Assembly (NCBI GenBank): GCA_046116545.1
Contig: CP175956.1
Location: 1,170,912 to 1,234,911, forward strand
Direction of reading: 5' to 3'
Origin: Candidatus Moraniibacteriota bacterium
GTDB lineage: Bacteria; Patescibacteriota; Minisyncoccia; Moranbacterales; GCA-2747515
Length of the DNA: 64,000 nucleotides
The notes beneath the pieces were generated by a model. It had not been told where the DNA came from. It made no database searches and saw only the letters and a list, made by a program, of their open reading frames with translations. The position numbers were made by a program, and so were the translations under genes. Positions 42,688 to 63,154 of this stretch are shown piece after piece; position 1 is the stretch's first letter, and the number at the start of each line of letters is the position of its first letter.

Positions 42688-45255
42688 CTACTGATAAAAC
42701 CCACTAGCATCAGAGGTAGCAGTATAAGTAACAGAACCAGTATATATTCCTGAAGGTTGTGATGGTGATACATCAACTTTGTAACATACATCAGTTGTTG
42801 ATGAAGTTGAATTATATGCTGTGTGTGCTGCTACTGCTTGAGCTGTTTGTGGTACACCTGCGTATTGGGCATCATCTGATGTTGTTCCTTCTTCGCATAG
42901 GTTTCCTGAGGTTGTCCATACGTTATTAAACGTATTATTTGTTGTATCTGCTTGTGGAAATTGTATTACACTGAATCCTAGACCTTTTGTTGTTGGAGCG
43001 TTCCATGATTCTGTTACTTTTGTTGTTTCATTGAATTGTGTTAGGTCTGGTATTTCATCTGTATTATTTGAATGTACTAGAGTTGTATTTGAAGCTCCAT
43101 TATCATTTATCATTGACAGGTAGTAACCTTGGGTATCATTTGTTGTTACTATACAAGTTGATTGTCCTACTGCTGGAGTTCCTGCTATTACTATTCCTGG
43201 ATTTGCTATTGTTCCTAGTATTACATCGTAATCTCCTGTTACACCATCTTTATCGTAACAATCCATTGATAGGGTTGCATTTACTTCTACATTTAGGTTT
43301 AGGTCATCTATTCCTGATATTGTTCCATCTCCGTTTACAATATAAGTTGTTGCATGGTTTGTTGTGAATGTACATATTCCGTTTGTTACTGTACATGTTG
43401 TATGTAGGACTTCAGTTCCTTGTGCTGCTCCTTCCTCTCTCGAAAGTACATCCAATATCATTCCATTGTAAGCTTCGCTTACAGTTATTTCCATTGTTAT
43501 ATCATTAGTAAAGTCTAATGATATTCCTGGTACACCTATTCTTACTGCTCCTACTGCATTTGGTAGATTTACTTGTTCACTTGTTAATGTATTTTCTGTT
43601 ATGAAGTTTTCAAAGTTAAAGTTTCCATTTAAACTTTCGGTTATTACTGTATTATTTGGAAATATTGCATTTGTTGTATTTGATTGGAATGTTACTTGTA
43701 CTTGGGTTGTTGTTTGGGTTGTGTTATCTATTGTTCCGTTGTCTACTGTTATATATCCATTATCTACTGATTGTTGCATTTCTGAATTATTTGGGTCTGT
43801 GATTATCACTTCTTCTACTACATCATCTACTGATATTATTATTTGTTTTTCGAATTGTTCTTGTAATGATTTGTATATATTTGAATTTATATTCTTTGTT
43901 GCATCGTTATAAAAATTTGTAACAACTAGATAATTTTCCATTCCTATCATAAAGTATTCCCAACTTGTTGCACCACTTGTTGCGATTGATTGAAATTCTA
44001 CAAAAGTTGAACCGTTCCATTTGTAGATTTTTGAGTTTATATTATATGTTGAACCATTATAATTATTTGCAACAACTAAATAATGTTCTGTGTCTATTGT
44101 AAAGTATTCCCAGTCTGATGCACCATTTGTCGCAATAGACTGAAACTCCACAAAAGATGTTCCATTCCATTTGTAGATTTTTGAGTTTATATTTGTTGAG
44201 CCATTGGAATAATTTGCGACTACCAGATAATCATCTACACCTATTGTGAAATGCTTCCAACCCGATGCACCGCTTGTTGCGATTGATTGAAAATCTACAA
44301 AAGATGTTCCATTCCATTTGTAGATTTTTGAGTTTATATTATATGAACCACTATATGAATTTGCAAGTGCCAAATAGTTATCTGTACCAATTGTAAAGTA
44401 TTCCCAACTATTTGCGCCAGTCGTTGCAATTGATTGAAATTCTACAAAAGATGTTCCATTCCATTTGTAGATTTTTGAGTTTATATTTCTCGATGAACCA
44501 TTATAATAATTTGTAACAGCTAGATAATCATCTATACCTATTCTGAAATGTTCCCAATTTCTTGCACCATTTGTTGCAATTGATTGAAGCACTCCAAAAG
44601 ATGTGCCGTTCCATTTGTAGATTTTTGAGCTTATGTTATATGTTGAACCATTATAATAATTTGTAACAGCCAAATAATCATCGGTACCTATCGTAAAGTG
44701 TTCCCAGTCTGATGCACCGCTTGTTGCGATTGATTGAAAATCTACAAAAGATGTTCCATTCCATTTGTAGATTTTTGAGTTTATATTATATGTTGAGTTA
44801 TTATGATAATTTGCAACAACCAGATAATCATCTGTGCCTATTGTGAAATATTCCAAGTCTTGTGCTCCATTCGTTAAAATGCCTTGTTCCAATACAAAAT
44901 CAGAATATGAATCAGTTGTTTTCACTCTTGTTGAATAGTTATTATCGCCAGGAGTACCTCCTAGGTCTTCTGGATTTTCATAATCTGGTGTAAAGTTTAG
45001 ATTTAGATTATCTCCATCTATTGTGAATTTGGAATTATCTTCGTCTCCTATTCCATTTATTAATTCATATGTGTATGGAGAATTTCCTCCTGTTGTAGTT
45101 AAAGTTCCTGAAGTTGTTCCACTTGGTGTATTTTCATCTATACTATCTGAACTTCCTCCATCTATTTGTATATCTGTTATTGCTGCTTGTGTTGTCTGTG
45201 TTAAAAAAAGTATAACAATCAATGTTATTGGGAATAGTAATATATATTTTTTCAT
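42688..45255 (-). CDS. Secreted 855-aa protein: N-terminal cadherin-like domain plus eight EAR/EPTP-like beta-propeller repeats plus a C-terminal region
   Basis: Signal peptide; IDENTPSGTTSGTL...YTYELI...FTIDGDNL cadherin-like pattern; 8 repeats SKIYKWNGTSFVDFQSIATSGASDWEHFTIGTDDYLAVTNYYNGS resembling LGI1/ADGRV1 EPTP repeats (IYKWNG, YLVVAN). Confidence 0.7.
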   Translation of the reverse strand: MKKYILLFPITLIVILFLTQTTQAAITDIQIDGGSSDSIDENTPSGTTSGTLTTTGGNSPYTYELINGIGDEDNSKFTIDGDNLNLNFTPDYENPEDLGGTPGDNNYSTRVKTTDSYSDFVLEQGILTNGAQDLEYFTIGTDDYLVVANYHNNSTYNINSKIYKWNGTSFVDFQSIATSGASDWEHFTIGTDDYLAVTNYYNGSTYNISSKIYKWNGTSFGVLQSIATNGARNWEHFRIGIDDYLAVTNYYNGSSRNINSKIYKWNGTSFVEFQSIATTGANSWEYFTIGTDNYLALANSYSGSYNINSKIYKWNGTSFVDFQSIATSGASGWKHFTIGVDDYLVVANYSNGSTNINSKIYKWNGTSFVEFQSIATNGASDWEYFTIDTEHYLVVANNYNGSTYNINSKIYKWNGSTFVEFQSIATSGATSWEYFMIGMENYLVVTNFYNDATKNINSNIYKSLQEQFEKQIIISVDDVVEEVIITDPNNSEMQQSVDNGYITVDNGTIDNTTQTTTQVQVTFQSNTTNAIFPNNTVITESLNGNFNFENFITENTLTSEQVNLPNAVGAVRIGVPGISLDFTNDITMEITVSEAYNGMILDVLSREEGAAQGTEVLHTTCTVTNGICTFTTNHATTYIVNGDGTISGIDDLNLNVEVNATLSMDCYDKDGVTGDYDVILGTIANPGIVIAGTPAVGQSTCIVTTNDTQGYYLSMINDNGASNTTLVHSNNTDEIPDLTQFNETTKVTESWNAPTTKGLGFSVIQFPQADTTNNTFNNVWTTSGNLCEEGTTSDDAQYAGVPQTAQAVAAHTAYNSTSSTTDVCYKVDVSPSQPSGIYTGSVTYTATSDASGFYQ
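43905..44930. repeat. Coding tandem repeats (about 147-nt period, 8 copies) for the EAR/EPTP-like blades
   Basis: ccatttgtagatttttgagtttatatt recurs at a regular period. Confidence 0.75.
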
Positions 45256-46789: not shown

Positions 46790-47157
46790 ATATTATTGGA
46801 AGACAGTTAATAAGCCGGATTCTGTCAAAAAATAAATTTTGGATGACAATCTATCTTGTTTATATGTTGCCATATAAATCCTTGCGACTCTTTCCAATTA
46901 CTTGGAATACGGTCTTGCACTTCAGTAAGGATTTAGCCGTTTCACTCTCTGTGTTACCACAAAGCATTATCCAAATAAATTTGGATAGTTTTTTACTTGC
47001 GCAAAAAACCGTCACTGCTCGCACCTCGTAGATTACTCTAGACGGGTATTACCCGCTACCGTTTTTTTGGTCATAAAGACCAAACTAGTGTCCGGACTTT
47101 CCTCTCCGAAATAAATTTCAAGAGCTGTCATCAAACGGTCTCCCAATAATATAAATG
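46790..47157 (-). ncRNA. rnpB: RNase P RNA (bacterial)
   Basis: Both conserved P4 strands are present on the minus strand: GAGGAAAGTCCGGAC (reverse complement of 47090-47108) and ACAGAATCCGGCTTAT (reverse complement of 46805-46826); terminal P1 pairing GGGAGAC/GTCTTCC; length about 370 nt. The + strand ORF 46786-47031 is spurious. Confidence 0.8.
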
Positions 47158-47803: not shown

Positions 47804-47942
47804 TTAAATGTCTCCACCGCACACGATTTTTGCAACAAACCACGTACGCTTGGATAACGTATAAATATAGCATTTTTTACTAATTTTGTCAATGAAAAAG
47901 CCACAATAATAATTTTATATTATTGTGGCTACTTACCACTGC

Positions 47943-48701
47943 TTATTCACCTATTTTGAGTGTAATATTGGAAATAGACTTTATTTCACTACCCTTTATT
48001 GAAGCAACTAACGGACCTTGTCCATATAGCCAGGTACCCTCTTCAATTTTCTCATTTTTGCTTACATATGGCTTTTCTTCCATGAAAATTTCCCGTACGA
48101 CATCGGCATTTTGAAATAATTCATCTATCCCAAAATCGATTGCTGACATTGAATATCTGTCATTTGACTGCGCCATGTAATCTCCTGGGGCATGCATACT
48201 AAGACAAATTGATTCAGTTGCAATTACACTCATCGTATCACCATCTTGTGAATCATCGCTGTATTCCCATACAGCAGCTTCTAATTGATAAAACTTATCA
48301 TTCAGTTCTACAATATTATTTGCGAGATAGGTTATCCGATCATTAAAAATATCTTCATTTTCTTTACTAAAATATCTTCCAAGCTCCTTTGAAACTGCAA
48401 TTTGCATAGCTCTCGACATATGTCCTGCATAATCAATATTTGCAAGTTTGTCACTTAAGTCTGCTATTATTTCTTGCCTTACTGCACGTTCACTTTTTGT
48501 AACTAACAATTCTTGTTTTGCAACTAACAGTTCTTTTTGCAACATTTCAATTTGAATAGATTGTTCCAAAACAACATCCGTCTGCATATTATCTACAAAA
48601 TATGCAGACAATGGAAAAAATGTTTCAAACAAAAATGAAACTGGTGTAACCATGGCAATAAACTTTATTGACCAAAACACTAACTCAGTGATGACGCTCA
48701 T
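47943..48701 (-). CDS. Hypothetical membrane-anchored coiled-coil protein
   Basis: N-terminal TM; heptad-like LQKELLVAKQELLVTK segment. Confidence 0.4.
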   Translation of the reverse strand: MSVITELVFWSIKFIAMVTPVSFLFETFFPLSAYFVDNMQTDVVLEQSIQIEMLQKELLVAKQELLVTKSERAVRQEIIADLSDKLANIDYAGHMSRAMQIAVSKELGRYFSKENEDIFNDRITYLANNIVELNDKFYQLEAAVWEYSDDSQDGDTMSVIATESICLSMHAPGDYMAQSNDRYSMSAIDFGIDELFQNADVVREIFMEEKPYVSKNEKIEEGTWLYGQGPLVASIKGSEIKSISNITLKIGE

Positions 48702-48826
48702 GACTTCCTCCTTTTATTTTTAAAAAACAACATACATCCATCAAACTGAAAAATTATACTAACATGACTCAATAAAAAAATCAATAGAAAAAGCAGTAAC
48801 TATTTACCTTTATCTAATGAAAATAA

Positions 48827-48906
48827 CCTGTCATTCCGGAAATGTTTATTTCTTCACGAACGATTAGTGAGTGATTGGAAATAACATTATCCGGAATCTC
48901 TAGAAC
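48827..48906. repeat. Intergenic palindromic repeat, long form (MITE/REP-like), with TTCCGGAA core at both ends
   Basis: cctgtcattccggaaatgttt...aacattatccggaatctctag; the ends are inverted copies of each other; related copies at 9226, 53170, 63127 and 48937. Confidence 0.6.
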
Positions 48907-48936
48907 ACATCAAGAAAAATTCGTGTATTACAATAA

Positions 48937-48963
48937 GATTCCTGCCTGCGCAGGAATGACATT
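48937..48963. repeat. Short hairpin form of the same repeat family, in inverse orientation
   Basis: gattcctgcctgcgcaggaatgacatt; its reverse complement gtcattcctgcgcaggcaggaatc parallels the 63127 copy. Confidence 0.5.
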
Positions 48964-49074
48964 AGAAAAATCTGAATAATTACAAAAAGCACCCTCCATA
49001 AATATAAGCTACTGCATGCTTGTAACTTGTAAAAGGCATAATCCTTACTAACAATATTATTCAACTCTAAAATA

Positions 49075-49108
49075 AAAACTGTTTGCAAAATTCTTTGCAA
49101 ACAGTTTT
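49075..49108 (-). terminator. Intrinsic terminator of the 49130-49642 gene
   Basis: 13-bp perfect stem aaaactgtttgca/tgcaaacagtttt with an 8-nt loop; T-rich on the minus strand. Confidence 0.55.
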
Positions 49109-49129
49109 ATATTGTTCTTGAAAAAATAT

Positions 49130-49642
49130 TCAAAGACTAAATATACCTTTAACTATATCAGTAACGATTTTCTCTGGTTTTTGATATATCGCTAAATATA
49201 CCAGTACCAGACTTTCTCGCTCAATAGCTATTGAGTGTGTAGTATTCTGTGACTTATTTATGATATTCATCTTGAACCATTCTTTGCCTTTCTCATGAAA
49301 TACAGATAAGTTTGTAGTATACCACCTCTGTGTATTCATGGTGATGTCCATATCTTTATATTCAAACTTACCACCTTTAACAAATGCCATCCAAGAGCCA
49401 CGTATGTCTTCTCGATTGATAACATATGATTGTGTATTCGTTCCATCAGTCACAACCATATCAATGAACTCTGTCGATTCCCCACCTTTTTCTTTGAAGG
49501 AATTTATTACCCTTTGAGCTGTCCATTCTTTCCCATTAATTCTTATGCGCAAATGTTGCGCAATATCTTCTGGAGAAAGCTTACTATTTCCATTACTCAT
49601 ACAATTTACCTCCTTATAAAAAGGAAAGGGCACACCGGTCAT
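49130..49642 (-). CDS. Hypothetical protein
   Basis: 170-aa ORF with its own terminator; no recognisable motif. Confidence 0.45.
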   Translation of the reverse strand: MTGVPFPFYKEVNCMSNGNSKLSPEDIAQHLRIRINGKEWTAQRVINSFKEKGGESTEFIDMVVTDGTNTQSYVINREDIRGSWMAFVKGGKFEYKDMDITMNTQRWYTTNLSVFHEKGKEWFKMNIINKSQNTTHSIAIERESLVLVYLAIYQKPEKIVTDIVKGIFSL

Positions 49643-49673
49643 TAACCAACATGCCCCTTATAACACAATAATC

Positions 49674-50333
49674 TTATTTGTCAGGATCTGACATTGAATC
49701 CGAATCTGTTAAGTCCTCATCCTTAGATTCAACAGAAGAGACTTCATTAATCGGCTCAGACTGTTCACGTTTCGGCTCATCGACAACATCAGAGCTATCG
49801 TCATCTTCTGACTCCAACACTTCCTCATCAGCTTCTTGAAGACCATCGTCTTCTTTCTCATGATCAGACTTATCAGCAGAATGCCCCACACTAACACCAG
49901 CAGCAACCGCTGCTACTTCCGGAGATACCGAGCCTGACTTCTCCTTTTCAACTTCTGTAGAAGCATCATCTTTTTTCTTATGGTCAGACTTATCATTAGC
50001 ATGAGCAGCAGCAATACCTCCCTCAGGTTTTACTCTTGACTTAGGATTGCTTTTCTTCGCCAACTGCATTTTTTTCACAACGAAATAGAAAACTCCAAAC
50101 ATAATACCAAGCACTATGGCATCGCCATACCAAGCAGCGGGAAGACATAAGATGGCCCCCGCAGCCATAATTGGCCAACCAAAAAACATTACCTTAATAT
50201 CACTTAAGTAATCTGGGCCAACTTTGTCATTCAAAAATTTTTGTCCCCTTGGATGCCTTTTTGCAACCTCAGCAATAATACCTATGATTATACAAACAAT
50301 ACCCACTAAATTCTCTTGCCAAAATAAAGTCAT
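49674..50333 (-). CDS. Membrane protein (3 TM) with a long acidic, internally duplicated C-terminal tail
   Basis: Hydrophobic N-terminal half; the tail repeats AAHANDKSDHKKKDDAS and VGHSADKSDHEKEDDGL; D/E/S-rich. Confidence 0.45.
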   Translation of the reverse strand: MTLFWQENLVGIVCIIIGIIAEVAKRHPRGQKFLNDKVGPDYLSDIKVMFFGWPIMAAGAILCLPAAWYGDAIVLGIMFGVFYFVVKKMQLAKKSNPKSRVKPEGGIAAAHANDKSDHKKKDDASTEVEKEKSGSVSPEVAAVAAGVSVGHSADKSDHEKEDDGLQEADEEVLESEDDDSSDVVDEPKREQSEPINEVSSVESKDEDLTDSDSMSDPDK

Positions 50334-50446
50334 ACCTTCTACCTCTTCGCTAAATTTATGTTAAACAACTTTACTATACCCGCAATTACGGACTTTTAAA
50401 TCTATCACAAAATCAAAATTAAATCAAGCATTCGCGTACTTGATTT

Positions 50447-50488
50447 TAAAAATAAAAATTGCTTCGTAGAATTTATCTACGAAGCAAT
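50447..50488 (-). terminator. Intrinsic terminator of the 50512-51711 gene, with a second weaker hairpin at about 50423-50449
   Basis: 13-bp perfect stem attgcttcgtaga/tctacgaagcaat with a 5-nt loop; T-run on the minus strand. Confidence 0.55.
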
Positions 50489-50511
50489 TATACTTCCCTA
50501 CAGACTTACGA

Positions 50512-51711
50512 CTATGTCGTAACTTCTGCAGTTATTTCTTCACTCTTTTCTTCTTCATCTCCCTTAAGAATGTCGATATCCTTCTTGAACGCTATAATTA
50601 GAGATACTAAGAAAGCTACCAGAAATGGTCCCACCAACGCACCCTTGAGACCGTATGCATTCATCCCTGCAATCATGCAAAGCATCAATGCAACAGCTGA
50701 TAATGTTGCTTCCTCGCCACCTAAGACTTTGAACTTGATCCAGTTATCACATGTTGCAACAAGAACTGTTGCAACAAGTAAAACACCTGTTGCTATATAA
50801 TGACCTTGCACTGCACTAATAACAACTAACCCGATTACTACTGGGGTTGCTACAAGCGGAAGTCCACAAGCAGATGTCGCAATAGCCAGTATGGCAATAA
50901 CCAAAAGCACAGCTATGTCTACAGGCATATACATAAAACAATATATCCCCACAATAAGCGTAGCCAAACCTCCCTGTCCCAAGCCAACTGCTACCATACT
51001 TTTTACAAGACTATTCATAACCTTCTGGACATCCAGGAGGATTTGTCTCGTATCCTCTTTTCCAAAAAAGGCGATATGCGGAAGCAGCCACTCTATCATC
51101 TTTTTACCTCTCAAAAGAAAAATAATTACGGCTACTACAGTTATGCTTATATCAACAAAGATCTTCCACACTTTTGCTAAAGTACCTGTAACTGCTCCGA
51201 GAACTGATTTACTTAATTTGCCAATCATACCACCACCCTGAAGTAGGACAGTGACACTGCCAAAATTTGAATCAGCTATCTCTATAGCCTTGTCCACAAA
51301 CATTGTTGACCATTCATGTTTTTTCTTTACTTTTACAAGCAAGTCCACAGCCTCTTCCTGAAATTCCGTAACCATAGTACTTCCATCCTTCACAGCCTCA
51401 ATTCCAGTATCAATCTTGTTGATACCATATACCCCAAAGCCCACCATCACAATAAAACACATGCCAATAAATGACATTATCATTATTGCTATAGCCGTCT
51501 TTGCTCTTCCTCCCAAAAACTCACTGAGAGGCTGATATACCGTTGGATACAACGCCGATGCTAATACTGCACCAATAAAAAATTGTGATACAAATGGTGT
51601 TATCATGGGCATAGTCACCCACATCATAAAAGCAACAAAAACTGCCCCTGCTACTTTCATTACTACTACCTTGTCTTTGGCTGTGTACCTGATATTTGGT
51701 CGTGTTTTCAC
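50512..51711 (-). CDS. Polytopic membrane protein, possibly AI-2E family transporter-like
   Basis: 399 aa, about 8-9 TM with a soluble loop after TM3; C-terminal GLKGALVGPFLVAFLV region resembles the AI-2E end motif; the assignment is weak. Confidence 0.4.
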   Translation of the reverse strand: MKTRPNIRYTAKDKVVVMKVAGAVFVAFMMWVTMPMITPFVSQFFIGAVLASALYPTVYQPLSEFLGGRAKTAIAIMIMSFIGMCFIVMVGFGVYGINKIDTGIEAVKDGSTMVTEFQEEAVDLLVKVKKKHEWSTMFVDKAIEIADSNFGSVTVLLQGGGMIGKLSKSVLGAVTGTLAKVWKIFVDISITVVAVIIFLLRGKKMIEWLLPHIAFFGKEDTRQILLDVQKVMNSLVKSMVAVGLGQGGLATLIVGIYCFMYMPVDIAVLLVIAILAIATSACGLPLVATPVVIGLVVISAVQGHYIATGVLLVATVLVATCDNWIKFKVLGGEEATLSAVALMLCMIAGMNAYGLKGALVGPFLVAFLVSLIIAFKKDIDILKGDEEEKSEEITAEVTT

Positions 51712-51824
51712 TTTTTATCTCCCAAAATAAATTGATTTTAAAAAACCAACAAAGCAATTTCGTGCTTTCATCGATGTTTCTTCAGTTGATATATAAGACA
51801 TGATTGCCTTACATGATTGTATGA

Positions 51825-53000
51825 CTATACTGCATGTTCTTGAGATATTTTATCCCATTTGATCATGCCCTCCTTAAATCGTTTTGATCGAAGATACTCA
51901 ATGAACATTCCCGCTTCAATACAACGTGATTTTGGTGGATTAACTTCAAGCTTGCCACCAGCTTTGTGACCTGCTGCAATTGCATCTGCTTTATTATTTC
52001 CTGACTTGAAAAATCTCTTCAAATCATCCCAACTACATCCGTCGAAATCCTCCGGAACTTGCAAACGATATTTTGTTTGTCCATCAGCATCTATCATATC
52101 CATCATGGTATACGATGATCCTGGATCCTGTATGCACCTAGCAATTAGCTCAGGCATACTAGTTGGAACAGGCTCGATGTTTTCCCCAAGAAGTTTAACA
52201 ACAGGAGCATTTTCATGCATTACGTCAAACGCAACTACAATATGAGCCTTTGGATTTACATTTCTCATAATGATACATAATGCGATGTTATAATTATCAT
52301 CACCTGTATCAATCAAAATTCTAGCAGCATCTGCGATACGTGCCTCTTTGAGAAATTTGTCAGACTTAAATCCTGTCTTGGTGCTTTTGCCACTGACAAT
52401 TCCACTCATTGGGTTTTTGTCATACCTCTCCTTATCAAAGCATAACAATAATTGTCGTTTTTCTCTACGAGTGTCGGCCAAAATATTATCAATGATAATA
52501 TTTGTTCTATTTCGTTGAAACGAAATAATTGGTATATGATCTTTTATACTCACAATGATATCTCCATGATATATTTTGTACGAAATTTTCCAAAAATCTT
52601 TAACCAACATTGCACCATAAGCAACTAAAAAGGCCGGGTAAAAATTGAATGAAAATGCAGAAACTAGCCTACCCATTTCTGACACAGGAGCCACATCTCC
52701 AAGTCCAACTGTTGAACTCAAAGCACTGACAAAATATAAATAATTTATCCAATTAGTTATATCGTTGTCAACAGGCTCAAATGAAATAAATATTCCCCAA
52801 TTAAAAAGAAAATATGACACCCAAATTATGACGGGCCACTTTGACTTAAATAGCTCTTTTTCTATTTCTAGAAAAATAAACGCTGCAGTAGCCGACTGTG
52901 ACTCCAGTCTCCCATATACAAACCCACGTACTTTTTTTGCAATACTTAGCAAATTAGCACGTATACCTGATAATATATTTTTTGACTTATTCACATTCAA
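51825..53000 (-). CDS. Two-TM potassium-channel-like protein with a noncanonical TVGLGD pore motif and a C-terminal cytoplasmic domain
   Basis: TM1, then pore helix plus STVGLGDVAP, then TM2 (KcsA-like layout); the C-terminal ~250 aa are not clearly RCK (no GxGxxG). Confidence 0.5.
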   Translation of the reverse strand: MNVNKSKNILSGIRANLLSIAKKVRGFVYGRLESQSATAAFIFLEIEKELFKSKWPVIIWVSYFLFNWGIFISFEPVDNDITNWINYLYFVSALSSTVGLGDVAPVSEMGRLVSAFSFNFYPAFLVAYGAMLVKDFWKISYKIYHGDIIVSIKDHIPIISFQRNRTNIIIDNILADTRREKRQLLLCFDKERYDKNPMSGIVSGKSTKTGFKSDKFLKEARIADAARILIDTGDDNYNIALCIIMRNVNPKAHIVVAFDVMHENAPVVKLLGENIEPVPTSMPELIARCIQDPGSSYTMMDMIDADGQTKYRLQVPEDFDGCSWDDLKRFFKSGNNKADAIAAGHKAGGKLEVNPPKSRCIEAGMFIEYLRSKRFKEGMIKWDKISQEHAV

Positions 53001-53169
53001 TCCCCCTCCTTTTCATCACAGTTTTCTGATATATTTTGTTAAAAAAACTAAAATCTAACACAATTTACACATTATAAATTGACTCATCAGATTAGCATAA
53101 ATTACAAAAGAAATCAAGTATAGTATCTTACATCCCACCTTCAACCTTAATCACAAATAAATATAAAAG

Positions 53170-53246
53170 CCTGTCATTCCGGAAGATATTATTTGTATCA
53201 GAGCGGTTAGCGATGATAACCAAATAAATCTGTCCGGAATCTATAC
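53170..53246. repeat. Intergenic palindromic repeat, long form
   Basis: cctgtcattccggaag...tctgtccggaatctatac; same termini as 48827-48906. Confidence 0.55.
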
Positions 53247-53410
53247 TGTGACATTAAAGGTCAGCTTTCGTACAAGTGATTTTTTGATGGATGGACAGGC
53301 ACAAGGCACTGTCCCTACTAAAAATCTATTTTACGAAATGACAGAAATTCAATATTTTTGTTGATTGAAATTTGAATTAGAATTCAGGAGTAAATGATAC
53401 TATCCCTACA

Positions 53411-53452
53411 AAAAATAAAAAGCTGCAGAAACATTATATAATGTTTCTGCAG
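53411..53452 (-). terminator. Intrinsic terminator of the 53461-54447 gene
   Basis: 13-bp perfect stem ctgcagaaacatt/aatgtttctgcag with a 4-nt loop; A-run upstream on +, so a T-run on the minus strand. Confidence 0.6.
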
Positions 53453-53460
53453 TTAACTAC

Positions 53461-54447
53461 TTATTGTTCTTTTTTTGGGAGATCTAGCCTAGACTCCTCA
53501 TCAGGTTCCCAGTCTAGTTCAAAAGCATCATCAATTTCTTCTTCCTCAACTTCAAAACCAATTTCGCCTTCATCAATATCCAACAATGAAAGTTCCCGAT
53601 CATCATCAAGTTCCGAATCTCCTCCATCTTCTATATCAAATATTCCTAAATCCAAATCATCCTCTTCATCATCAAGAAAAGTAGATGATACAGACTCATC
53701 CTCAATTTCATCTTCTTGTGTATCTGTCATTACTGGTTCAGTATCCAATATTGATATAGTGCCTATCTCTGAATTCATTGCGGTTAGTTTGTCAGATAAT
53801 TCACCCAATTCTGCTGTAACAACCTGCTGTAACATGTTGATTAAACCACTGAAATGATCTACTAAATGATCATTATTTTCACCTACCTGTTGTAATAAAT
53901 TGGCAACAATAGTATCAATAGCCAGCTCTCCAGTTTGAGTGCCACTATGCTTATAAAACTTTTGCAATGATGCGTCCATGGCAGTGCTCAATCGTGTAAC
54001 CTCTCTTCCTTCGACATCACGCATTTCAGTGAGTTCTTCACGTAATTCATCACCCTCTTTACGCAATGCTACAATCATTTGTTGTGCCTCTGCCTCACCT
54101 TCCTGCAATCGTTTACGTTCTTTTTCAACTAACTCAAGAGTCTTTTTCACACCTCCCAACTCACTAACACGCTCATAGAGAGCATCAGCCTTGTCTTCTT
54201 CCTTCACTAATCGCTTATTAAATTGAAATGCAAGTCTACTAAACCCTGCTACCATGAAAGCCAGTGCTACAATACAAATTGTAGCCCCAGCATTCATGCC
54301 CATCCATGCTAACAACTCGCTTGATGAATCTGCAATATTTGTAGTTAAATAACTCCAAGATACTTGTGCTGACTCTCGTAAAGTTTCAATCATTTTTCCC
54401 ATCTCCAAGTTATAATTTTGTATTGTAAAACAACAATTAATTTGCAA
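53461..54447 (-). CDS. Single-pass membrane protein with a coiled-coil domain and a highly acidic C-terminal tail
   Basis: TM (ATICIVALAFMVAGF), a long Glu/Lys-rich helical region, and a C-terminal DDEEDDLDLGIFDIEDGGDSELDDD tail; the real start is probably an internal Met. Confidence 0.45.
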   Translation of the reverse strand: MQINCCFTIQNYNLEMGKMIETLRESAQVSWSYLTTNIADSSSELLAWMGMNAGATICIVALAFMVAGFSRLAFQFNKRLVKEEDKADALYERVSELGGVKKTLELVEKERKRLQEGEAEAQQMIVALRKEGDELREELTEMRDVEGREVTRLSTAMDASLQKFYKHSGTQTGELAIDTIVANLLQQVGENNDHLVDHFSGLINMLQQVVTAELGELSDKLTAMNSEIGTISILDTEPVMTDTQEDEIEDESVSSTFLDDEEDDLDLGIFDIEDGGDSELDDDRELSLLDIDEGEIGFEVEEEEIDDAFELDWEPDEESRLDLPKKEQ

Positions 54448-54499
54448 TCAAATAAATTTGATATATAACTATATCACTGATACTACATTTGGTCAATTA

Positions 54500-54542
54500 T
54501 AAATAAAAAGCTGCTACGATATTTTGTAATATCGTAGCAGCT
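54500..54542 (-). terminator. Intrinsic terminator of the 54563-55783 gene
   Basis: 14-bp perfect stem agctgctacgatat/atatcgtagcagct with a 6-nt loop; T-run on the minus strand. Confidence 0.6.
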
Positions 54543-54562
54543 ATACTGTACCTCACACGCAA

Positions 54563-55783
54563 TTATTTATTGCGCTGTGCTTTTTCAAAATCTCCAACAG
54601 TTTGTAAATCATCTTCATCAATAGAATCCTCTGTCATATCCACTTCAGAAAGATACACAAATGTATTCAACTTTTTAAGCATGAGCGCAGCCATCTCCAA
54701 TAAGTCAATTGGATCTGTAGAGTCATTGATATCTACAACTGGCTTTGTTGATACCATTTTTGGAATTAACTCAAGTCCTTCAACACTCTTTTCAAGTTGC
54801 TTCATCAACGCCTGTCGATCACCTGCAAGCAATCTTGTGATCAGATCCTCATCAACTGATTTATTCACAATAATTACTTTTTTCTTAATAGTGTCAAGTT
54901 GGTTACTGGATTCTGCATTCAATTCTGCAACAGTCCATGTGTGAATGCCTGAACGTTCACTCTGTATAGCAGTGAGACGCTTATCTATATCAACTTGATA
55001 TTGCTTGATAGCTTTTTCAACAAGCTTATCAAGATCAACTTCCGGTGCACTCTTAGCATCCTCAAGCTTCTTCACCAGACCGTCAGTAAGAGTTTCCAGT
55101 GACTTATTAATTGAATCACTTCCGTCTCCAAGTTGTTTCTTTACAAAATCATGCAATTCCTGCATCGGAACTTTCATCTCTGCGGCCACATTTTCAGCCA
55201 GCGCTTTACCATTATCATCAGGACCGATAGTAATCACTGCACCAATGACTTCAGCCATTTCTTTGAGATTAGTCAGGACCTCTTTGTTAAAAATTGGCAC
55301 AGAAATTGGATTTTCATCAACTCCTGATGATTGTTTCAATTCACCCACAGGACTTACCTCAAGTTCCTTGAAAAAATCAACCCCATAAAACTCACGCAAG
55401 GCTTCTAAATTACTCAACTTACGTCGACCAATTTTATCAGCTATTTCTTGCTCAAGCTTTTGCTTGTCTTGTGTCAGCTTTTTAACATCATTCTCTGACT
55501 TCTTGATGATTTTATCTAACACCTTTATTTGATCTTGACTTGCTAAGTCATATTTTTTCAATCGCGCAATTTTTTTCAATCGCTTTTTAGTGGCACGTTT
55601 CTGTGCCCAAATCACCGCACACAGTACGATAAATAGAATCCCAACTCCTCCAATTGCAATAGCAAACGGAGAATTTGTCAAAAATTCTTCCCCAAAATTT
55701 GTCATTACATTCTTAACAGACTCAATAATTTCGCCTACTTCAACTCTAATGTTGCCATCAGTTACACTTATCACACTTGCCAT
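54563..55783 (-). CDS. Single-pass membrane protein with coiled-coil domains and an acidic C-terminus (paralogous architecture to 53461-54447)
   Basis: TM (FAIAIGGVGILFIVLCAVIW), then KRATKKRLKK, then coiled-coil segments, then a C-terminal EDSIDEDD. Confidence 0.45.
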   Translation of the reverse strand: MASVISVTDGNIRVEVGEIIESVKNVMTNFGEEFLTNSPFAIAIGGVGILFIVLCAVIWAQKRATKKRLKKIARLKKYDLASQDQIKVLDKIIKKSENDVKKLTQDKQKLEQEIADKIGRRKLSNLEALREFYGVDFFKELEVSPVGELKQSSGVDENPISVPIFNKEVLTNLKEMAEVIGAVITIGPDDNGKALAENVAAEMKVPMQELHDFVKKQLGDGSDSINKSLETLTDGLVKKLEDAKSAPEVDLDKLVEKAIKQYQVDIDKRLTAIQSERSGIHTWTVAELNAESSNQLDTIKKKVIIVNKSVDEDLITRLLAGDRQALMKQLEKSVEGLELIPKMVSTKPVVDINDSTDPIDLLEMAALMLKKLNTFVYLSEVDMTEDSIDEDDLQTVGDFEKAQRNK

Positions 55784-55868
55784 AATCTTTTCCTCTCCAA
55801 AAATGAGATATTTCGTTTAGCTAATTACTTTTTACACAAATAACTAACCTATTTTATACTTCCAATTT

Positions 55869-55967
55869 CTACTCCAATTTAAAAATCCAACGCACAAAAA
55901 TACTAAATGATATAACTGCCACAACAATTGCACCCAAAAGTGCACTTGCATGTATCCAATTATCCAT
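55869..55967 (-). CDS. Unannotated 32-aa hydrophobic mini-protein (MDNWIHASALLGAIVVAVISFSIFVRWIFKLE)
   Basis: Manual translation; one TM; its start overlaps the stop of the 55960-56223 ORF by 8 nt. Confidence 0.25.
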   Translation of the reverse strand: MDNWIHASALLGAIVVAVISFSIFVRWIFKLE

Positions 55968-56223
55968 AACCTATCACCCTCCCAAATCTAAATGTGGTAC
56001 TACAGCCTCGCTTCCTTTGTAACCATAAAAAATATACAAAAACAAATAAAGCAATACACAATATCAACATAGCTCGAATAGATTCCATCACAAGGGCTGC
56101 TGTTCGATATACAGTAATACTGATTAATCTAAATGGCATCACAAGAAATATTATCCAAATAAGTTTAGACATATCACTCACCTTCTTGAAATTATTTTTC
56201 AAATTTTCTGTCTTTAGGCACAA
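55960..56223 (-). CDS. Small two-TM membrane protein (possibly starting at the internal Met, about 56175)
   Basis: 87-aa ORF; two hydrophobic helices; its 5' end overlaps the 46-aa mini-ORF. Confidence 0.35.
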   Translation of the reverse strand: MCLKTENLKNNFKKVSDMSKLIWIIFLVMPFRLISITVYRTAALVMESIRAMLILCIALFVFVYFLWLQRKRGCSTTFRFGRVIGYG

Positions 56224-56332
56224 AAATAATACAAGCTATAAAACTTGTAACAATCACTGATACAATAATAATCGTCTCAATGTTATTTGCAATAACTGGT
56301 ACTGACTGCAATAAATCCTGAATCATTATCAT
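56192..56332 (-). CDS. Unannotated 46-aa single-TM mini-protein (MIMIQDLLQSVPVIANNIETIIIVSVIVTSFIACIIFVPKDRKFEK)
   Basis: Manual translation of the minus strand; ATG at 56332; TAA stop at 56194-56192. Confidence 0.25.
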   Translation of the reverse strand: MIMIQDLLQSVPVIANNIETIIIVSVIVTSFIACIIFVPKDRKFEK

Positions 56333-56490
56333 GCTATTTTCTCCTCAATATTCAATTATTAAATTACATCTGAAAAATATACCTATACTTTTCACAATTA
56401 TATTTACAAAAAATAAATACTGTTGTAAAAACTATTGTGCTTTGAGTATTGATATCAATACTCAAAGCACGCTCCTTTAAATTGTTGAAT

Positions 56491-58263
56491 TTATAATGTC
56501 ACAACCTGATCTTCATCCATAGGCTCTGCCTTTTGGATAGTTGCCCATGGCATTTTGGATATTGCTGTCATAATGTTTCTCTGAGCATACATTCCCATGC
56601 CCATGCCTACATGTACAGCTGATCCCAAGACCTTGCCAGATGCATTGATGACGCTTTGACCTGTTGCCTGCAATGCCTGCAACTTTCCACCATCAATACT
56701 AATTTGACGTAAGCGTCTAGCCTCTTTTCTACTATCTTTATTGATAAGCATTACGAGACGATTATTGCCGATTACAAATCGACCTATCTTCCACTTACGA
56801 AACATGTACATACGATGTTTCCCACCTAGTGACATCTTGCCAAAAAATGTTTTTGCTAATATTACAGAAATGAATTCAAAGACTTTGTTCACACCAAGTT
56901 TTCTCAAACCTGCTCCAAACAATCCCATCACAGTCCTGAAACCAGCAAAAATTTTAATGAGAACGCCCTTTGGAAAAAGTGGATAAATAAAATCAGCAGA
57001 ACCACCCATCAACCAAATTGCTGTCATGCCAATAATGCACCAAAACATCTGTCTGGGAAATGATAATGATTTATAATGAGTCACTGCTCTATCTTTGTAT
57101 TTACCAAAGAATAACTTCGCCCACATAACTTTTTCATTTTTTAACGCTCTTGCTTTCTTATTCGCAAAAAATTGCGTAATAGCAAGTGCAATGCCTAACT
57201 TAATAGCACCTCTTGCGCTCACCTTTTGTGCTGCAAAGACTCCAAAATTTTTGGCCTGTGCCCATGAAAGAGTAGTTATCAAAGTAATGCCACGTCCCCA
57301 CCACAGTTTTGTAAAACTGATGATGTAACCTGTGTACAAAATTGCTTTACTCTTTATGAAAATAAGCACTTTTAATATGATACTTCTCCAAACAATGGTT
57401 ACAGCAGCAAAAAAGTGTACATCCCACACCAATTGGCAAATGAGAATAATTATACTGAGTATGATACATAACCATATTACAGGACAAATCTGTCTTTTAA
57501 CCTTTACAGTAAGCCTGCTCCATATACGCCACATTATCGTAGTTCCCATAATTGCAGCAACTTCGATAACAAACATAGCTTTGGAGATGGTCAATCTATA
57601 ACACACCCACTTCACTGCAAATGTAACAACTCCTACTTCCCCACAAAAAAATAAAATATTGCGAGCTTTCTGAGTCATTGATTCAAATACAGCATTCAAA
57701 TTATGCAATATACATAATATTGGCAATGTAATTGTCACCAAAATACCAAACGGTACAATTGATTTGCATACCAGCTTATGTACATTCACAACAGTGGCCA
57801 TAAAAATATCCTGTGCCAATTTCTGACTGAAATTCACAATGGAATGCCACAAAATTATTGCATCTTGCAGAGACCTTACATCACCCTTGTTATGTAACAA
57901 GGCCAAGGCAAATGCCCAAACAGGCACCCATCTCAATAAAACACGAATTGACTCTTTTTTTTCATCTGACAATCTCGGCCATATAAATGACCATGTGGAC
58001 CACGTCAATACTAACGTAAACCAGATTGTAGCAAATACAACGATACTACCGTGTTGCCAATGTGACCCTCCAAAGATTGCTATTGCCATCTGCAATATAA
58101 CTGCATACTCCAAGAAAAAAATAAATACACTTTTCACACGTGAATGTACTACTTGTTGCAATAAATTTCCTTGATGCAATAACATACATGGTCTCATCAA
58201 TAGCACGATAGCAAAGATGGACCACAGGTCATGCCTTGTAATACCAAGCGCTGTAATATCCAT
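56491..58263 (-). CDS. Large (590 aa) polytopic membrane protein, Trp/Lys/Cys-rich, unknown family
   Basis: At least 10 hydrophobic segments; no transporter-like G/A-rich motifs; first gene of a tightly packed four-gene minus-strand operon. Confidence 0.5.
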   Translation of the reverse strand: MDITALGITRHDLWSIFAIVLLMRPCMLLHQGNLLQQVVHSRVKSVFIFFLEYAVILQMAIAIFGGSHWQHGSIVVFATIWFTLVLTWSTWSFIWPRLSDEKKESIRVLLRWVPVWAFALALLHNKGDVRSLQDAIILWHSIVNFSQKLAQDIFMATVVNVHKLVCKSIVPFGILVTITLPILCILHNLNAVFESMTQKARNILFFCGEVGVVTFAVKWVCYRLTISKAMFVIEVAAIMGTTIMWRIWSRLTVKVKRQICPVIWLCIILSIIILICQLVWDVHFFAAVTIVWRSIILKVLIFIKSKAILYTGYIISFTKLWWGRGITLITTLSWAQAKNFGVFAAQKVSARGAIKLGIALAITQFFANKKARALKNEKVMWAKLFFGKYKDRAVTHYKSLSFPRQMFWCIIGMTAIWLMGGSADFIYPLFPKGVLIKIFAGFRTVMGLFGAGLRKLGVNKVFEFISVILAKTFFGKMSLGGKHRMYMFRKWKIGRFVIGNNRLVMLINKDSRKEARRLRQISIDGGKLQALQATGQSVINASGKVLGSAVHVGMGMGMYAQRNIMTAISKMPWATIQKAEPMDEDQVVTL

Positions 58264-58278
58264 CTAAATTGCCTCCAA

Positions 58279-58569
58279 TTACTTTTTCATTTCAATCACA
58301 CGATTACTGTACGGCGCATCTGATTTATTTTTTTCGATTATTGCCTGATTAAGCAATATCGCAATAATAATTACCCATGCCAAAATGCCAAGGATAAAAT
58401 TACGCGTCGCTCTAACAGCACATTCACGAATAAACTTAATTGGTTTCTCTTTGATTTCCTCAATCGTGTACATAGACATCTCCTCAAAAAAAGAAAAGTG
58501 ACCACCACGACGATATCGTAGTGGCCACAAGAATATTTCATCTGTCACATTAATTATTATCCACTTCAT
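58279..58569 (-). CDS. Small single-TM protein
   Basis: 96 aa; 20-nt overlap with the upstream gene. Confidence 0.35.
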   Translation of the reverse strand: MKWIIINVTDEIFLWPLRYRRGGHFSFFEEMSMYTIEEIKEKPIKFIRECAVRATRNFILGILAWVIIIAILLNQAIIEKNKSDAPYSNRVIEMKK

Positions 58570-59074
58570 CAGTAGACATTTGTCCAGATAATCTTCTAAT
58601 CAAGATTCCCGTAGCCATCCCAACAGCAAACAGAATCGAAATGATAAATGTAGTATACCATTGCGCCTCACTTGCCTTTGTTAAATCAAGGTAACCATGA
58701 TCAATTAAGAACCACGTGGCCAAACCTGAAATGCCAAACATTGCAATAAGCCCAACTGTACCAAGTGCTTTCTTTGCCAGAAAGGCAAAAATTCCCCACA
58801 CAATAACAGCAGCTCCCACAGCAAGTGCTTTGGAACTCATAGCTGCATCAGATGTTTGTACCCATTTATATAAGCAGTACTGTGTGGGATTATATGTAGC
58901 CCACACAACAACCAAAGCATAAACCAACCTGGTATATAGAACTTCTACAAAATTTTGATTCTTGAATGATTTGAAAAAACTCGTAAATGCGAATTTCAAC
59001 ATTCCCTTTCCAGCAGCCTTTCCATGTTTAGTCGCAACAGCTTTTGCATTTTCCATCTTTTGCCTTACCTCCAT
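58550..59074 (-). CDS. Four-TM membrane protein, unknown family
   Basis: 174 aa; contiguous with the 59075-59371 gene. Confidence 0.45.
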   Translation of the reverse strand: MEVRQKMENAKAVATKHGKAAGKGMLKFAFTSFFKSFKNQNFVEVLYTRLVYALVVVWATYNPTQYCLYKWVQTSDAAMSSKALAVGAAVIVWGIFAFLAKKALGTVGLIAMFGISGLATWFLIDHGYLDLTKASEAQWYTTFIISILFAVGMATGILIRRLSGQMSTDEVDNN

Positions 59075-59371
59075 CTAAATTGATTTGAAAATATCGAGAG
59101 CATCATCATAGAGCTCATCAGATATTTGAAAACATTTTTCACCTGTATCAACAACATATGTAGTAGTTGTATCTGTCACATCAACAACAGCTACTGCCAT
59201 TGAACATGTGGTGCACATAGCTATATTAGCCTGTACCTCTGGTGGCATTTTTTTGCAAAATGCATGCCATCCATATGAAGTACTCACTATTATCACAGTT
59301 GGAATAAAAAATAAATACAATATTTTTTCCTTCCATGTAAATCTCCAGGCTATACTGAACCAATCCAACAT
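59075..59371 (-). CDS. Small N-terminally anchored protein with Cys-rich and Thr-rich segment
   Basis: 98 aa; TM followed by CKK...CTTCS...TDTTTTYVVDTG. Confidence 0.35.
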   Translation of the reverse strand: MLDWFSIAWRFTWKEKILYLFFIPTVIIVSTSYGWHAFCKKMPPEVQANIAMCTTCSMAVAVVDVTDTTTTYVVDTGEKCFQISDELYDDALDIFKSI

Positions 59372-59562
59372 AATTTCTCCTCCTGAATTATAAATTCAAC
59401 AATTGTTAAAATACTTTTTTGAAACATATTTATGTCACAAAATTTTATATACTATCTACAAATAATCTACAAAATTCTGTACATAACGCCTTAAAACTTC
59501 CAAAATGTTAATAAAATGACACGACCACTTATTATACATAATATTTTAAATTTGTCAATAAA

Positions 59563-59594
59563 AATTCCCACTGATGAATTCATCAGTGGGAATT
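59563..59594. terminator. Perfect 32-bp palindrome (aattcccactgatgaattcatcagtgggaatt) acting as a terminator for the 59641-60564 gene
   Basis: Read directly; it contains GAATTC at its centre; A-run upstream on +, so a T-run on the minus strand. Confidence 0.5.
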
Positions 59595-59640
59595 AGATCT
59601 ATCTGGATTTCCAGACTATATTTACTATATTGCTCAATGA

Positions 59641-60564
59641 TTAAATTTGAGCTTTTAATTCTTCAAACTTTACAAGTCCCTGACTCTTCCAGCCCTTAAT
59701 CTTGAGCCATGCTTTCTGAGTCCATGTGGGCTGTGGTGAAAAGTCTTCCGAAGACATTCCTTTTAAGATATCTTTGGTAGCATCAACCATTTCAGCAACA
59801 TCTACTGAATACTGAGCTGATGAATCAAACACAGCAACTACAGGCATCATAACAGTTGATACTTCTCCGAATCCAGGAATAGTAACCTTTCCAGCTTTGA
59901 GACCCTCTTTAATCAAAGAGCGCGACAATACACCGGTAACCTTCAGTTTTTCCTTGTCAATTGCCTGCATCAGCTTGGAATACGGATTAGGATATCGCGA
60001 TACAAACCCAACCATATTAGGATTGGACTTCAGAGCGTTTAAAAAATCAGCTTCTGATGTAAAGCTTTGAATGCGTGATTTATCCAATCCATGCGAAATG
60101 GCAAAAGAGGCTTCTCCACTATCCATCCCACCCAGGACTGCCAATCTCAGTCGCTTCATGTTCAAGAGTGTTTCCCATGTGCGAAGTTTTGACTTGGATC
60201 CAAGAAATGTAATAGTTTTTTCCTGTCCGACAAGCAACATAGCCTCTGAAAATGGTGCTATCATCACATCATTCATGCCTTCTGCTTCGGCAACTTTTTG
60301 CATTGCCCAGCCAAAATGAAGATTTCCAGCTTTTACATTATCACAATTAAATTTACTTCCACCTGGGGAACCCACTTCAATTGGGATCAGTTGTTCTTCA
60401 GCCTTCTGCTTGAGAATATTGGCGGTTCGATAAAACTCACCAGTTTCTCCACCTGAACCAAAACAAACAACTCCATCAGGACAAGCTGCCATAGCCATTG
60501 AAGCCGCTGTAAATACAAACGCCACTGCTGTGACCGCCACTGTCTTTAATAAGTCTCTTTTCAT
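59641..60564 (-). CDS. Periplasmic solute-binding protein, TAXI-family TRAP receptor-like
   Basis: Lipoprotein-like signal (AMAAC); CFGSGGETGEFY resembles the TAXI GGTGGTYY motif; strong GGAGG Shine-Dalgarno 9 nt upstream. Confidence 0.4.
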   Translation of the reverse strand: MKRDLLKTVAVTAVAFVFTAASMAMAACPDGVVCFGSGGETGEFYRTANILKQKAEEQLIPIEVGSPGGSKFNCDNVKAGNLHFGWAMQKVAEAEGMNDVMIAPFSEAMLLVGQEKTITFLGSKSKLRTWETLLNMKRLRLAVLGGMDSGEASFAISHGLDKSRIQSFTSEADFLNALKSNPNMVGFVSRYPNPYSKLMQAIDKEKLKVTGVLSRSLIKEGLKAGKVTIPGFGEVSTVMMPVVAVFDSSAQYSVDVAEMVDATKDILKGMSSEDFSPQPTWTQKAWLKIKGWKSQGLVKFEELKAQI

Positions 60565-60827
60565 CTTTTCAAACCTCCAGTTTGAGAATAATGTTTATTG
60601 ACACAATGCCAACATAAAAAATTGTAAAATCTACTTTATCGAATTATGAAATTTCTTCACATCGAAATATTATCCTAGTATACTTTACTTTTCTTGTCAA
60701 GTATTTTTTATAGATTTTCTTATATAAATTAATTTTTATTTTTCATCCTACTGCAATAAAAAAAGCAAGAAGAAAAATTTCTCCTTGCCTCAATATTGTG
60801 CGAATTATTCGCTTTTCATTATCTTTT

Positions 60828-61544
60828 TTAAACAGGTGTAGCTGAGATAACCTTTGGATATACTCCGAAAGCTCTAAGCCATCTTATCCCATAAACTCTA
60901 ATTTTCAATCTTCTGTCTTGGGTAAATTCATCCCAAAGCAATGTACGCTCAAATCTTAAAGCAAAAACTTCAACTTCCCGCAACTTCACTGTAAATTTTT
61001 TGCCATCGTCAGGTTTCACGGTTACGTTAAACTTAGACCCCGTATCTTCTGGCTTACCCACCGTCACATCATATTCATAATAAAATACATGTATAGCAAG
61101 TGGTTGCCATAATACAGCAGCAGCAAGAAGTACTATTAAAACCGTTTTAGTTTTCTTGTATTTCTGCAGTCTGTCTATTGATCCATACAACATAACAGCA
61201 ACTGTTAATACTGCTACAGGAACAGTCCAAGCTGGTTCAAAATAAAACATCATCAGTAAAAAACCCATGAGTACTACAGTAGCTGTAGTCTGAAATCTAT
61301 ATTCAGCTAAACTCTCAATTGCGTAAGGCAATATCACAGCTGCCAATACAATCGTAACTAAAGATGCTATGATTGGATACATCATTGCTACAGCAATCAA
61401 TGCACCTACAATGGCAAGTATTACTATCCATTGCTTTTTACTAAGCGATTTCACTGAATCCCATAGTTCTCCACCCTTTACTTGTGCCGAACTAGCAAAA
61501 GTAACTGCCCTAGCCTTACTTCCTTCAAACCAACTATTTTGCAT
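60828..61544 (-). CDS. Polytopic membrane protein, unknown
   Basis: 238 aa; about 4-5 TM, then a soluble C-terminal domain. Confidence 0.45.
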   Translation of the reverse strand: MQNSWFEGSKARAVTFASSAQVKGGELWDSVKSLSKKQWIVILAIVGALIAVAMMYPIIASLVTIVLAAVILPYAIESLAEYRFQTTATVVLMGFLLMMFYFEPAWTVPVAVLTVAVMLYGSIDRLQKYKKTKTVLIVLLAAAVLWQPLAIHVFYYEYDVTVGKPEDTGSKFNVTVKPDDGKKFTVKLREVEVFALRFERTLLWDEFTQDRRLKIRVYGIRWLRAFGVYPKVISATPV

Positions 61545-61870
61545 AGCGTCTCCTTTCTCCCTTTTATATTTCTTATGAGTACTACCCTACATTAACTATA
61601 TGTTAAATGACTTTGCAACATCAATCTATCGCAATAACAAATCGACAGATAACCATATCATGTAATACCCACTTAGTCAATATACTTTATCACCAACTGA
61701 AAAACTTTAGGAATTTAATAAGTAAAAAAATCTACTAGACAATTCTTGCATCTCCTTTTACAAAATGATTGAGAATTCTTTACTTTACATACCATGGATT
61801 AAAAAAATTAATCACTCTTTTAAAGAGTAATTAATTAAAAAAATGATAATACTACATTTTTTTGATATAA

Positions 61871-63126: not shown

Positions 63127-63154
63127 TGTCATTCCCGCGTAGGCGGGAATCTAG
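63127..63154. repeat. Short hairpin form of the palindromic repeat family
   Basis: tgtcattcccgcgtaggcgggaatctag; 9-bp GC-rich stem. Confidence 0.5.

Follow-up and report, generated by a model that had tools for sequence, protein, structure and literature searches.

The DNA analyzed here, a 64-kb stretch that we call the window, belongs to a 1,286,331-bp Candidatus Moraniibacteriota MAG (Patescibacteria), and two further loci of this genome, L181 and L184, lie on the same contig. Two large ORFs in the window, 9567-18872 and 23756-28213 (-), encode products of 3101 and 1485 aa with internal repeats of 153 nt and ~195 nt and with F5/8 type C, glycine-rich, and CarboxypepD_reg domains; these products are probably surface proteins. 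The sole Rfam family found in the window at gathering score is a class A RNase P RNA (46795-47143, minus strand, 109 bits). An 855-aa repeat protein gene with 150-nt tandem repeats and an EPTP domain lies at 42688-45255 and is absent from the syntenic region (L157) of a related MAG. The 14 kb at 47900-61900, made up mostly of unannotated genes, are likewise absent from that syntenic region, and the related MAG has a second copy of a 178-aa SdrD_B-like gene instead. Type IV pilus genes (competence) are present in the same genome as the window.

Hairpin repeats in the window and elsewhere in the genome

The window holds seven copies of a hairpin repeat, and three more lie in the two other loci of the genome. 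The copies are labeled below as putative Ssn-related motifs (SRMs), an assignment for which we argue in the next section, and their z scores refer to folds of single-stranded DNA with DNA parameters.

9227-9296, plus strand: decayed long-form copy; left end GTCATTCC kept, hairpin lost (z +0.65)
10128-10152, plus strand: probable SRM with a core of a second type, GTCATCCTGAACTTGATTCAGGATC, placed in frame within the 3101-aa ORF (peptide ILNQVQDD)
48830-48899, plus strand: long-form SRM; GTC, base stem ATTCCGGA(A), extended imperfect stem, TCCGGAAT, and C(T)
48936-48960, minus strand: short-form SRM, GTCATTCCTGCGCAGGCAGGAATCT (z -4.63); tail-to-tail partner of the 48830 copy across a 36-nt spacer
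53102-53399, no strand: composite imperfect palindrome of ~290 nt; arm, SRM, spacer, inverted SRM, arm
53173-53242, plus strand: long-form SRM (z -5.45)
53264-53342, minus strand: long-form SRM; GTC, base stem ATTTCGTA...TACGAAAG, and C (z -4.97)
63127-63154 (hairpin 63128-63152), plus strand: short-form SRM, TGTCATTCCCGCGTAGGCGGGAATCTAG (z -5.43)
L181 10488-10568: long-form SRM, same genome
L181 14356-14379: short SRM, same genome, in frame, read as KDSCLRRND

Every intact copy in the window, L181, and L184 keeps a 5′ GTC and a 3′ C, and the core common to the family is GTC, ATTCC...GGAAT, and C(T). An earlier note on this DNA, made from the sequence alone, had placed the self-complementary octamer TTCCGGAA at the core; this octamer is present only twice, in the 5′ arms of two long copies. 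The note was right to recognize hairpin repeats with shared GTCATTCC...GGAATCT termini, which are intact at 48830-48899, 48936-48960, 53173-53242, and 63128-63152, and all five of the copies that it listed are indeed intergenic. Its fifth copy, at 9227, is a decayed one that no longer folds, and it missed the copies at 53264-53342 and 10128-10152. It had also considered that the motif might be confined to those five loci, or the similarity to the 8-bp palindrome. We found more copies, both elsewhere in this genome and across many other organisms, and the similarity reaches well past 8 bp.

The repeats are enriched, and the intact ones are predicted to fold stably. The string GTCATTCC occurs 7 times in the window versus 1.68 expected, a count reached by none of 100 shuffles, and a strict detector (GTC, a perfect 8-bp stem, a loop of 3 to 8, and C) returned three window matches versus 0.043 in shuffles. 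Folded as single-stranded DNA, the five intact window copies have z scores between -4.6 and -5.5. Short copies measure 24 to 25 nt, while long forms measure 69 to 79 nt here and up to 116 nt in L136. Eight intact copies were counted in the ~117 kb of the genome that we read, roughly one per 15 kb. The same population appears in eight metagenome assemblies with identical repeats.

Several differences between copies preserve pairing. The long copy at 48830-48899 (-15.8 kcal/mol, z -4.70) is identical in five strain contigs; its interior differs from that of the 53173 long copy, and pairing is kept in both. The stem of the short 48936 copy differs from that of the 63128 copy by one compensated change, C-G to T-A, and the base stem ATTTCGTA/TACGAAAG of the 53264-53342 copy is likewise a compensated change. 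A copy identical to the one at 63128 occurs in the same genome at L184 6606-6629. In the decayed 9227-9296 copy, G>A and C>T transitions have affected both arms, turning the CCGGAA arms into CCAAAA/TTCAAAAT. Folded alone, the 10128-10152 copy has a z score of -2.05, and its core is similar to those of the SRMs on the flanks of Ssn-type genes in L189 and L195.

The long and short copies at 48.8 kb stand in opposite orientation, as the earlier note described, with 36 bp rather than 30 between them. Because the minus-strand copy at 53264-53342 is present as the tail-to-tail partner of the 53173 copy, the 53.2-kb site is an inverted pair as well. The unit around it, 53102-53399, aligns to its own reverse (nhmmer, E 7.5e-9). 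In alignments, this ~290-nt unit recurs in the related MAG at L157, L164, L172, and L135 with ~90% identity; the same four loci carry near-identical equivalents of the 53173 copy, and intact equivalents of the 53264-53342 copy, GTCATTCCGTAAAA...TACGGAATC, occur in L164 and L136.

Three further observations concern the placement of these copies. A second GC-rich hairpin, GTAGGGACAGTGCCTTGTGCCTGTCC, which starts with a REP-like GTAG, is nested in the loops of long SRMs in the window (53293-53315, minus strand), in L181 (10488-10568), and in L136 (1732-1847). The short SRM at L181 14356-14379 lies within a 631-aa transketolase ORF, in the linker that joins its N-terminal half to the pyrimidine-binding half. 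These halves are separate genes in many organisms, and the L181 transketolase may be a fusion across a former intergenic SRM. Finally, the forward strand of six unpaired copies (63128, 9227, and 10128 in the window; 10488 and 14356 in L181; 6606 in L184) is antisense to the adjoining genes and lies on the C-rich strand. We dropped antisense orientation as a general rule when a control on other loci gave 10 versus 12, with no bias; the bias in this genome may be due to chance or be lineage specific.

Relationship to the Neisseria transformation sequence and Ssn-related motifs

The main text of Chenal et al. (Nat Commun 2025; PMC11893778) presents the Neisseria Transformation Sequence (NTS), CGTCATTCCCGCGMAVGCGGGAATCYRG, as an oriented extension of dRS3 (ATTCCC-N8-GGGAAT), and defines a wider class of Ssn-related motifs of 20 to 50 nt with a short loop. 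As described there, the partner protein SsnA is a 94-aa single-domain GIY-YIG protein (cd10448) that binds the hairpin in single-stranded DNA only and cuts the forward strand only, a few nucleotides 5′ of GTC. Binding depends above all on the C that directly follows the palindrome, and cleavage on the three nucleotides that precede it; in vitro the hairpin loop can be dispensed with, and stem-lengthening extensions can take its place (PMC11893778). In the Ssn systems characterized in that text, recombination of incoming single-stranded DNA is restricted or modulated, and the repeats cluster around variable genes; the SRM-rich genera that it names include Rickettsia (PMC11893778).

Of the 28 positions of the NTS consensus CGTCATTCCCGCGMAVGCGGGAATCYRG, 26 are matched by the copy at 63127-63154, which also fits the published degenerate SRM pattern (1 match, versus 0.03 in shuffles). 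Within it, 63131-63150 (ATTCCCGCGTAGGCGGGAAT) is a perfect dRS3, from which the other copies deviate at the sixth stem position (ATTCCT, ATTCCG, or ATTTCG stems). The 48936 copy narrowly misses the SRM pattern, with a T in the stem and an A at the last position, and the long forms do not match that pattern, whose loop is at most 5 nt. The short copies fall within the published 20 to 50 nt and the long forms exceed it. We conclude, with a probability of roughly 0.78, that the repeats belong to the Ssn-related motifs, as do the NTS and dRS3 repeats of Neisseria, and that they are oriented DNA hairpins composed of a 5′ GTC, an ATTCC...GGAAT palindrome, and a C.

GC-rich stems in AT-rich intergenic DNA would also suit a role in transcripts, whether as Rho-independent terminators (a proposal of the earlier note), as regulatory hairpins, or as small RNAs such as FtrB. 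The stems covary (see below), the 48957-48938 hairpin passes a loose terminator scan, and window positions 48915-48974 give a weak match (26 bits, E 0.008) to Rfam RF02748, Francisella sRNA B (FtrB). However, that match is far under the gathering score of 66 and covers the 48936 hairpin only; at gathering thresholds Rfam returned no family for the repeats, and its E-value mode returned sub-threshold FtrB and noise. FtrB is a 115-nt sRNA, of which everything but the hairpin is absent here. Nor do the repeats behave as terminators: the long forms and the 63128 copy have no T-runs, 48957-48938 is the only hairpin to pass even the loose scan, and the upstream genes have canonical terminators of their own elsewhere in the same spacers, at 49075-49108 and 53423-53452. 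Orientation relative to genes is unbiased (10 versus 12), and the conserved GTC and C flanks, which a terminator leaves unexplained, fit a DNA-level recognition site. In addition, an RNA version of the hairpin is not bound by SsnA, according to the main text of PMC11893778. We therefore regard a function in RNA as very improbable. A literature search with the peptide string AFAGMT gave no match.

The FtrB entry is informative in another respect. Its consensus contains GUCAUUCCCGCGUAGGCGGGAAUCU, identical to the 63128 copy, and because this is the exact SRM/NTS hairpin, the annotated Francisella sRNA probably overlaps an SRM copy. The two spacer palindromes at 49075-49108 and 53423-53452 are long, AT rich, and perfect, are followed by T-runs, and stand directly after the upstream stop codons; they are probably the real terminators of the upstream genes and distinct from SRMs.

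Long forms and tail-to-tail pairs

A metagenome scan with the pattern GTCATTCCGGAA-N40-65-CCGGAATC located long forms in at least 120 contigs, with GC contents of 25 to 70%. The 101 distinct long forms from metagenomes have 75 different inner arms. In this set an arm and its own partner are paired at 4.49 of 7 positions, compared to 1.98 with shuffled partners (maximum of 2.41 in 1000 shuffles), and the 3′ side has a conserved purine bulge (A in 75, G in 21). Given that every intact copy keeps GTC and C, and that the loop is dispensable for SsnA, the sequences of the long forms are best read as those of SRMs in which the loop has been replaced by a long, covarying secondary stem.

We also collected 207 elements from all fetched loci with a detector that required the GTC and C flanks. 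Where adjacent elements lay less than 300 bp apart, 52 of 60 arrangements were tail-to-tail, 2 were head-to-head, and 6 were tandem, with a median gap of 32 nt. Combinations of a long and a short form are common, as in the 69+24 pair at 48.8 kb. The preponderance of tail-to-tail pairs indicates that the 48.8-kb arrangement, which the earlier note likened to a BIME, is standard for the SRM family. Term searches of the main text of PMC11893778 returned no mention of such pairs.

In L189 (3336-3382), L193 (3336-3401), and L191 (3336-3423), and also in L038, L078, L089, and L112, a complete hairpin follows a tandem series of 5′ half-sites (GTCACCCTGAAC with ~10 nt). The number of half-sites differs between strains (2, 3, or 4) beside an Ssn-type gene, which looks like the product of repeated cut-and-repair or of slippage on the cleavage side.

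Candidate partner nucleases

The published link between nuclease genes and repeats was reproduced in other organisms: in three unrelated lineages (L189-L199), Ssn-type GIY-YIG genes have SRM arrays on both sides. A long-form tail-to-tail pair lies 8 nt after an Ssn-type gene in L188/L059, and a long form lies 84 nt upstream of a frameshifted Ssn-type gene in L006. Searches of the window, its flanks, and the two further loci with tblastn and phmmer, a total of ~117 kb or ~9% of the 1.286-Mb genome, found no Ssn-type (cd10448) gene. A homologue search with an Ssn-type query returned no protein of the host contig among 470 scored candidates, a weak negative.

The sole GIY-YIG protein seen in the genome, P0033 (86 aa), is of the UPF0213 type. 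It matches PDB entries 1zg2 (E 1e-17) and 1ywl (E 1e-15), compared to E 0.002 for an Ssn-type protein. A weak GIY-YIG match in the related MAG (L136) is the orthologue of P0033 and is also UPF0213-type. The synteny around P0033 is conserved in relatives as well, and no SRM occurs in the loci fetched from these (17.6 and 11.3 kb), so we rejected P0033 as the likely partner. Since the ~117 kb that we read yielded neither an Ssn-type gene nor a RAYT (REP-associated tyrosine transposase) or other transposase, the action of an Ssn-type nuclease on the copies in this Moraniibacteriota genome is an inference, as is its biological outcome.

A further possibility is that the repeats are REP/BIME or REPIN elements kept by a RAYT, or that they derive from IS200/IS605 ends. 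In favor of this, the 5′ flank of the hairpins is asymmetric, most pairs are inverted, as in REPINs, a composite palindromic unit is repeated in the relative, and the nested hairpin begins with GTAG. The earlier note had drawn this analogy and suggested looking for a cognate RAYT or IS200-like gene. We found neither in the window or its flanks, nor any other transposase among the window ORFs or the called genes of the flanks (Pfam families), and the ~117 kb of the genome hold no Y1 (HUH) transposase or IS200-like ORF. Furthermore, REP sequences are species-specific, whereas the motif studied here is conserved across contigs of 25 to 70% GC from many phyla, its sequence agrees with the NTS/SRM consensus, and the genes that such repeats flank encode GIY-YIG proteins. 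The analogy is thus right in kind, as these are oriented hairpin repeats of a nuclease-linked family, often in inverted pairs, while its link to RAYT or IS200 did not hold up; we consider an origin from RAYT or IS200/IS605 elements highly unlikely.

The repeats and a variable gene block

The closest available relative, GMC4_bin_51, came from a genome-collection scan and shares 80 to 85% identity with the host in syntenic genes. This MAG lacks the whole 47.9-61.9 kb block at the syntenic position, and the junction carries a 53173-type SRM unit. The 63128 site is empty in GMC4_bin_51. In the L136 spacer, an SRM pair is present in GMC4_bin_51 and the site is empty in two more distant relatives. 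The earlier note had described copies at the borders of a compositionally odd block. Its composition is only mildly different (GC of 0.35 to 0.385, versus 0.30 to 0.35), but the block is variable relative to GMC4_bin_51.

Filled and empty sites between related genomes are what one would look for in non-autonomous MITEs, moved by a conventional transposase that acts on terminal inverted repeats, and the earlier note had offered this reading too. Inverted ends are present in the repeats, and the ~290-nt unit exists in several copies of ~90% identity in the related MAG. However, comparison of the filled and empty states at 63128 revealed no clean target-site duplication, although the flanks there have diverged, and neither an autonomous element nor a transposase was seen in the sampled DNA. 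The interiors of the copies differ within one genome and yet keep their pairing, unlike recent copies of a single MITE, and the short forms, at 24 to 25 nt, are too small for classical MITEs. For these reasons MITEs seem to us a quite improbable explanation.

The copies could also serve as the target of a recombinase, as dRS3, a known phage integration target (PMC1797815), does for Neisseria prophage. The perfect dRS3 at 63131-63150 agrees with this, as does the position of copies at the borders of a block that is absent in the relative. On the other hand, neither the block nor its immediate surroundings yielded an integrase, an IS110-type gene, or prophage genes. Such a role, which would be compatible with the action of an Ssn nuclease, seems very unlikely to us here.

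Discussion

We favor the reading of the repeats as Ssn-related motifs. The repeat family itself is of an already known kind, described in 2025, and represents no new category of biology. What is new here is the host phylum, the natural long-stem forms that fall outside the published pattern, and a strong rule of tail-to-tail pairing.

If the Moraniibacteriota repeats work as their relatives do, the hairpin would form once the DNA becomes single-stranded, and an SsnA-like GIY-YIG nuclease of ~94 aa would bind it and cut that strand a few nucleotides 5′ of GTC. Cleavage would then restrict, or modulate, the recombination of incoming single-stranded DNA. The long forms would present the same recognition base, with a long, covarying second stem in place of the loop. 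In a tail-to-tail pair, each strand would have one cleavable copy, with the expected cut site facing outward. One can speculate further that such pairs, among them those with long-stem forms and the ~290-nt unit, are REPIN-like mobile units, excised or copied from single-stranded DNA by a GIY-YIG Ssn protein via the outward cut sites, active in CPR bacteria and shaping their variable gene blocks, with the nuclease possibly acting in trans or lost. We hold this extension to be unlikely. Were it true, Ssn and SRM together would make up a hairpin-dependent mobile or domesticated system, parallel to RAYT/REP and built on another nuclease fold.

The reading as SRMs places the recently described NTS/SRM-Ssn repeat system in the Candidate Phyla Radiation (CPR). 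The CPR consists of bacteria with tiny genomes, in which the uptake of foreign DNA is considered important. The SRM reading also implies that a large class of naturally occurring long-stem copies escapes the published motif definition. For genome annotation, SRMs explain GC-rich intergenic hairpins as well as spurious or in-frame peptides such as KDSCLRRND, and they flag likely boundaries of variable gene blocks.

Several known repeat systems invite comparison. Rickettsia palindromic elements (RPEs) are palindromic repeats of small, AT-rich genomes that may lie within protein-coding genes without breaking the reading frame, a placement to which those of L181 14356-14379 and window 10128-10152 can be likened. 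RPEs are 100 to 150 bp long, and their sequences are different from those of the repeats here; the two kinds of element may coexist in Rickettsia. The dRS3 repeats and NIMEs of Neisseria (PMC1797815) are, as here, interspersed with other short repeat modules and adjoin genes that vary between genomes. There they form arrays with RS repeat families of 50 to 150 bp, whereas here we see pairs and single copies only, and the Neisseria RS elements are unrelated to the spacer modules of this genome.

REP, BIME, and REPIN sequences are extragenic hairpins, often in inverted pairs, that are recognized as single-stranded DNA by a dedicated nuclease whose own gene is flanked by repeats, and the same is true of the SRM family. 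The partner of REP sequences is a HUH tyrosine transposase, while that of SRMs is a GIY-YIG protein, and the SRM motif crosses phyla rather than being species-specific.

The NTS/SRM-SsnA system is the closest counterpart. The present case differs from it in its Patescibacteria/CPR host, in the long forms and the 48936 copy that lie outside the published pattern, and in that no Ssn-type gene was seen in ~9% of the genome. Copy number also differs, as the organisms of the Ssn studies carry hundreds of copies per genome, compared to a modest one per ~15 kb here. In both, the consensus is the same, GTCATTCC(C)GCG-loop-CGC(G)GGAATC, and both share the GTC and C flanks, the hairpin, a mostly intergenic spread in multiple copies, and clustering near variable genes.
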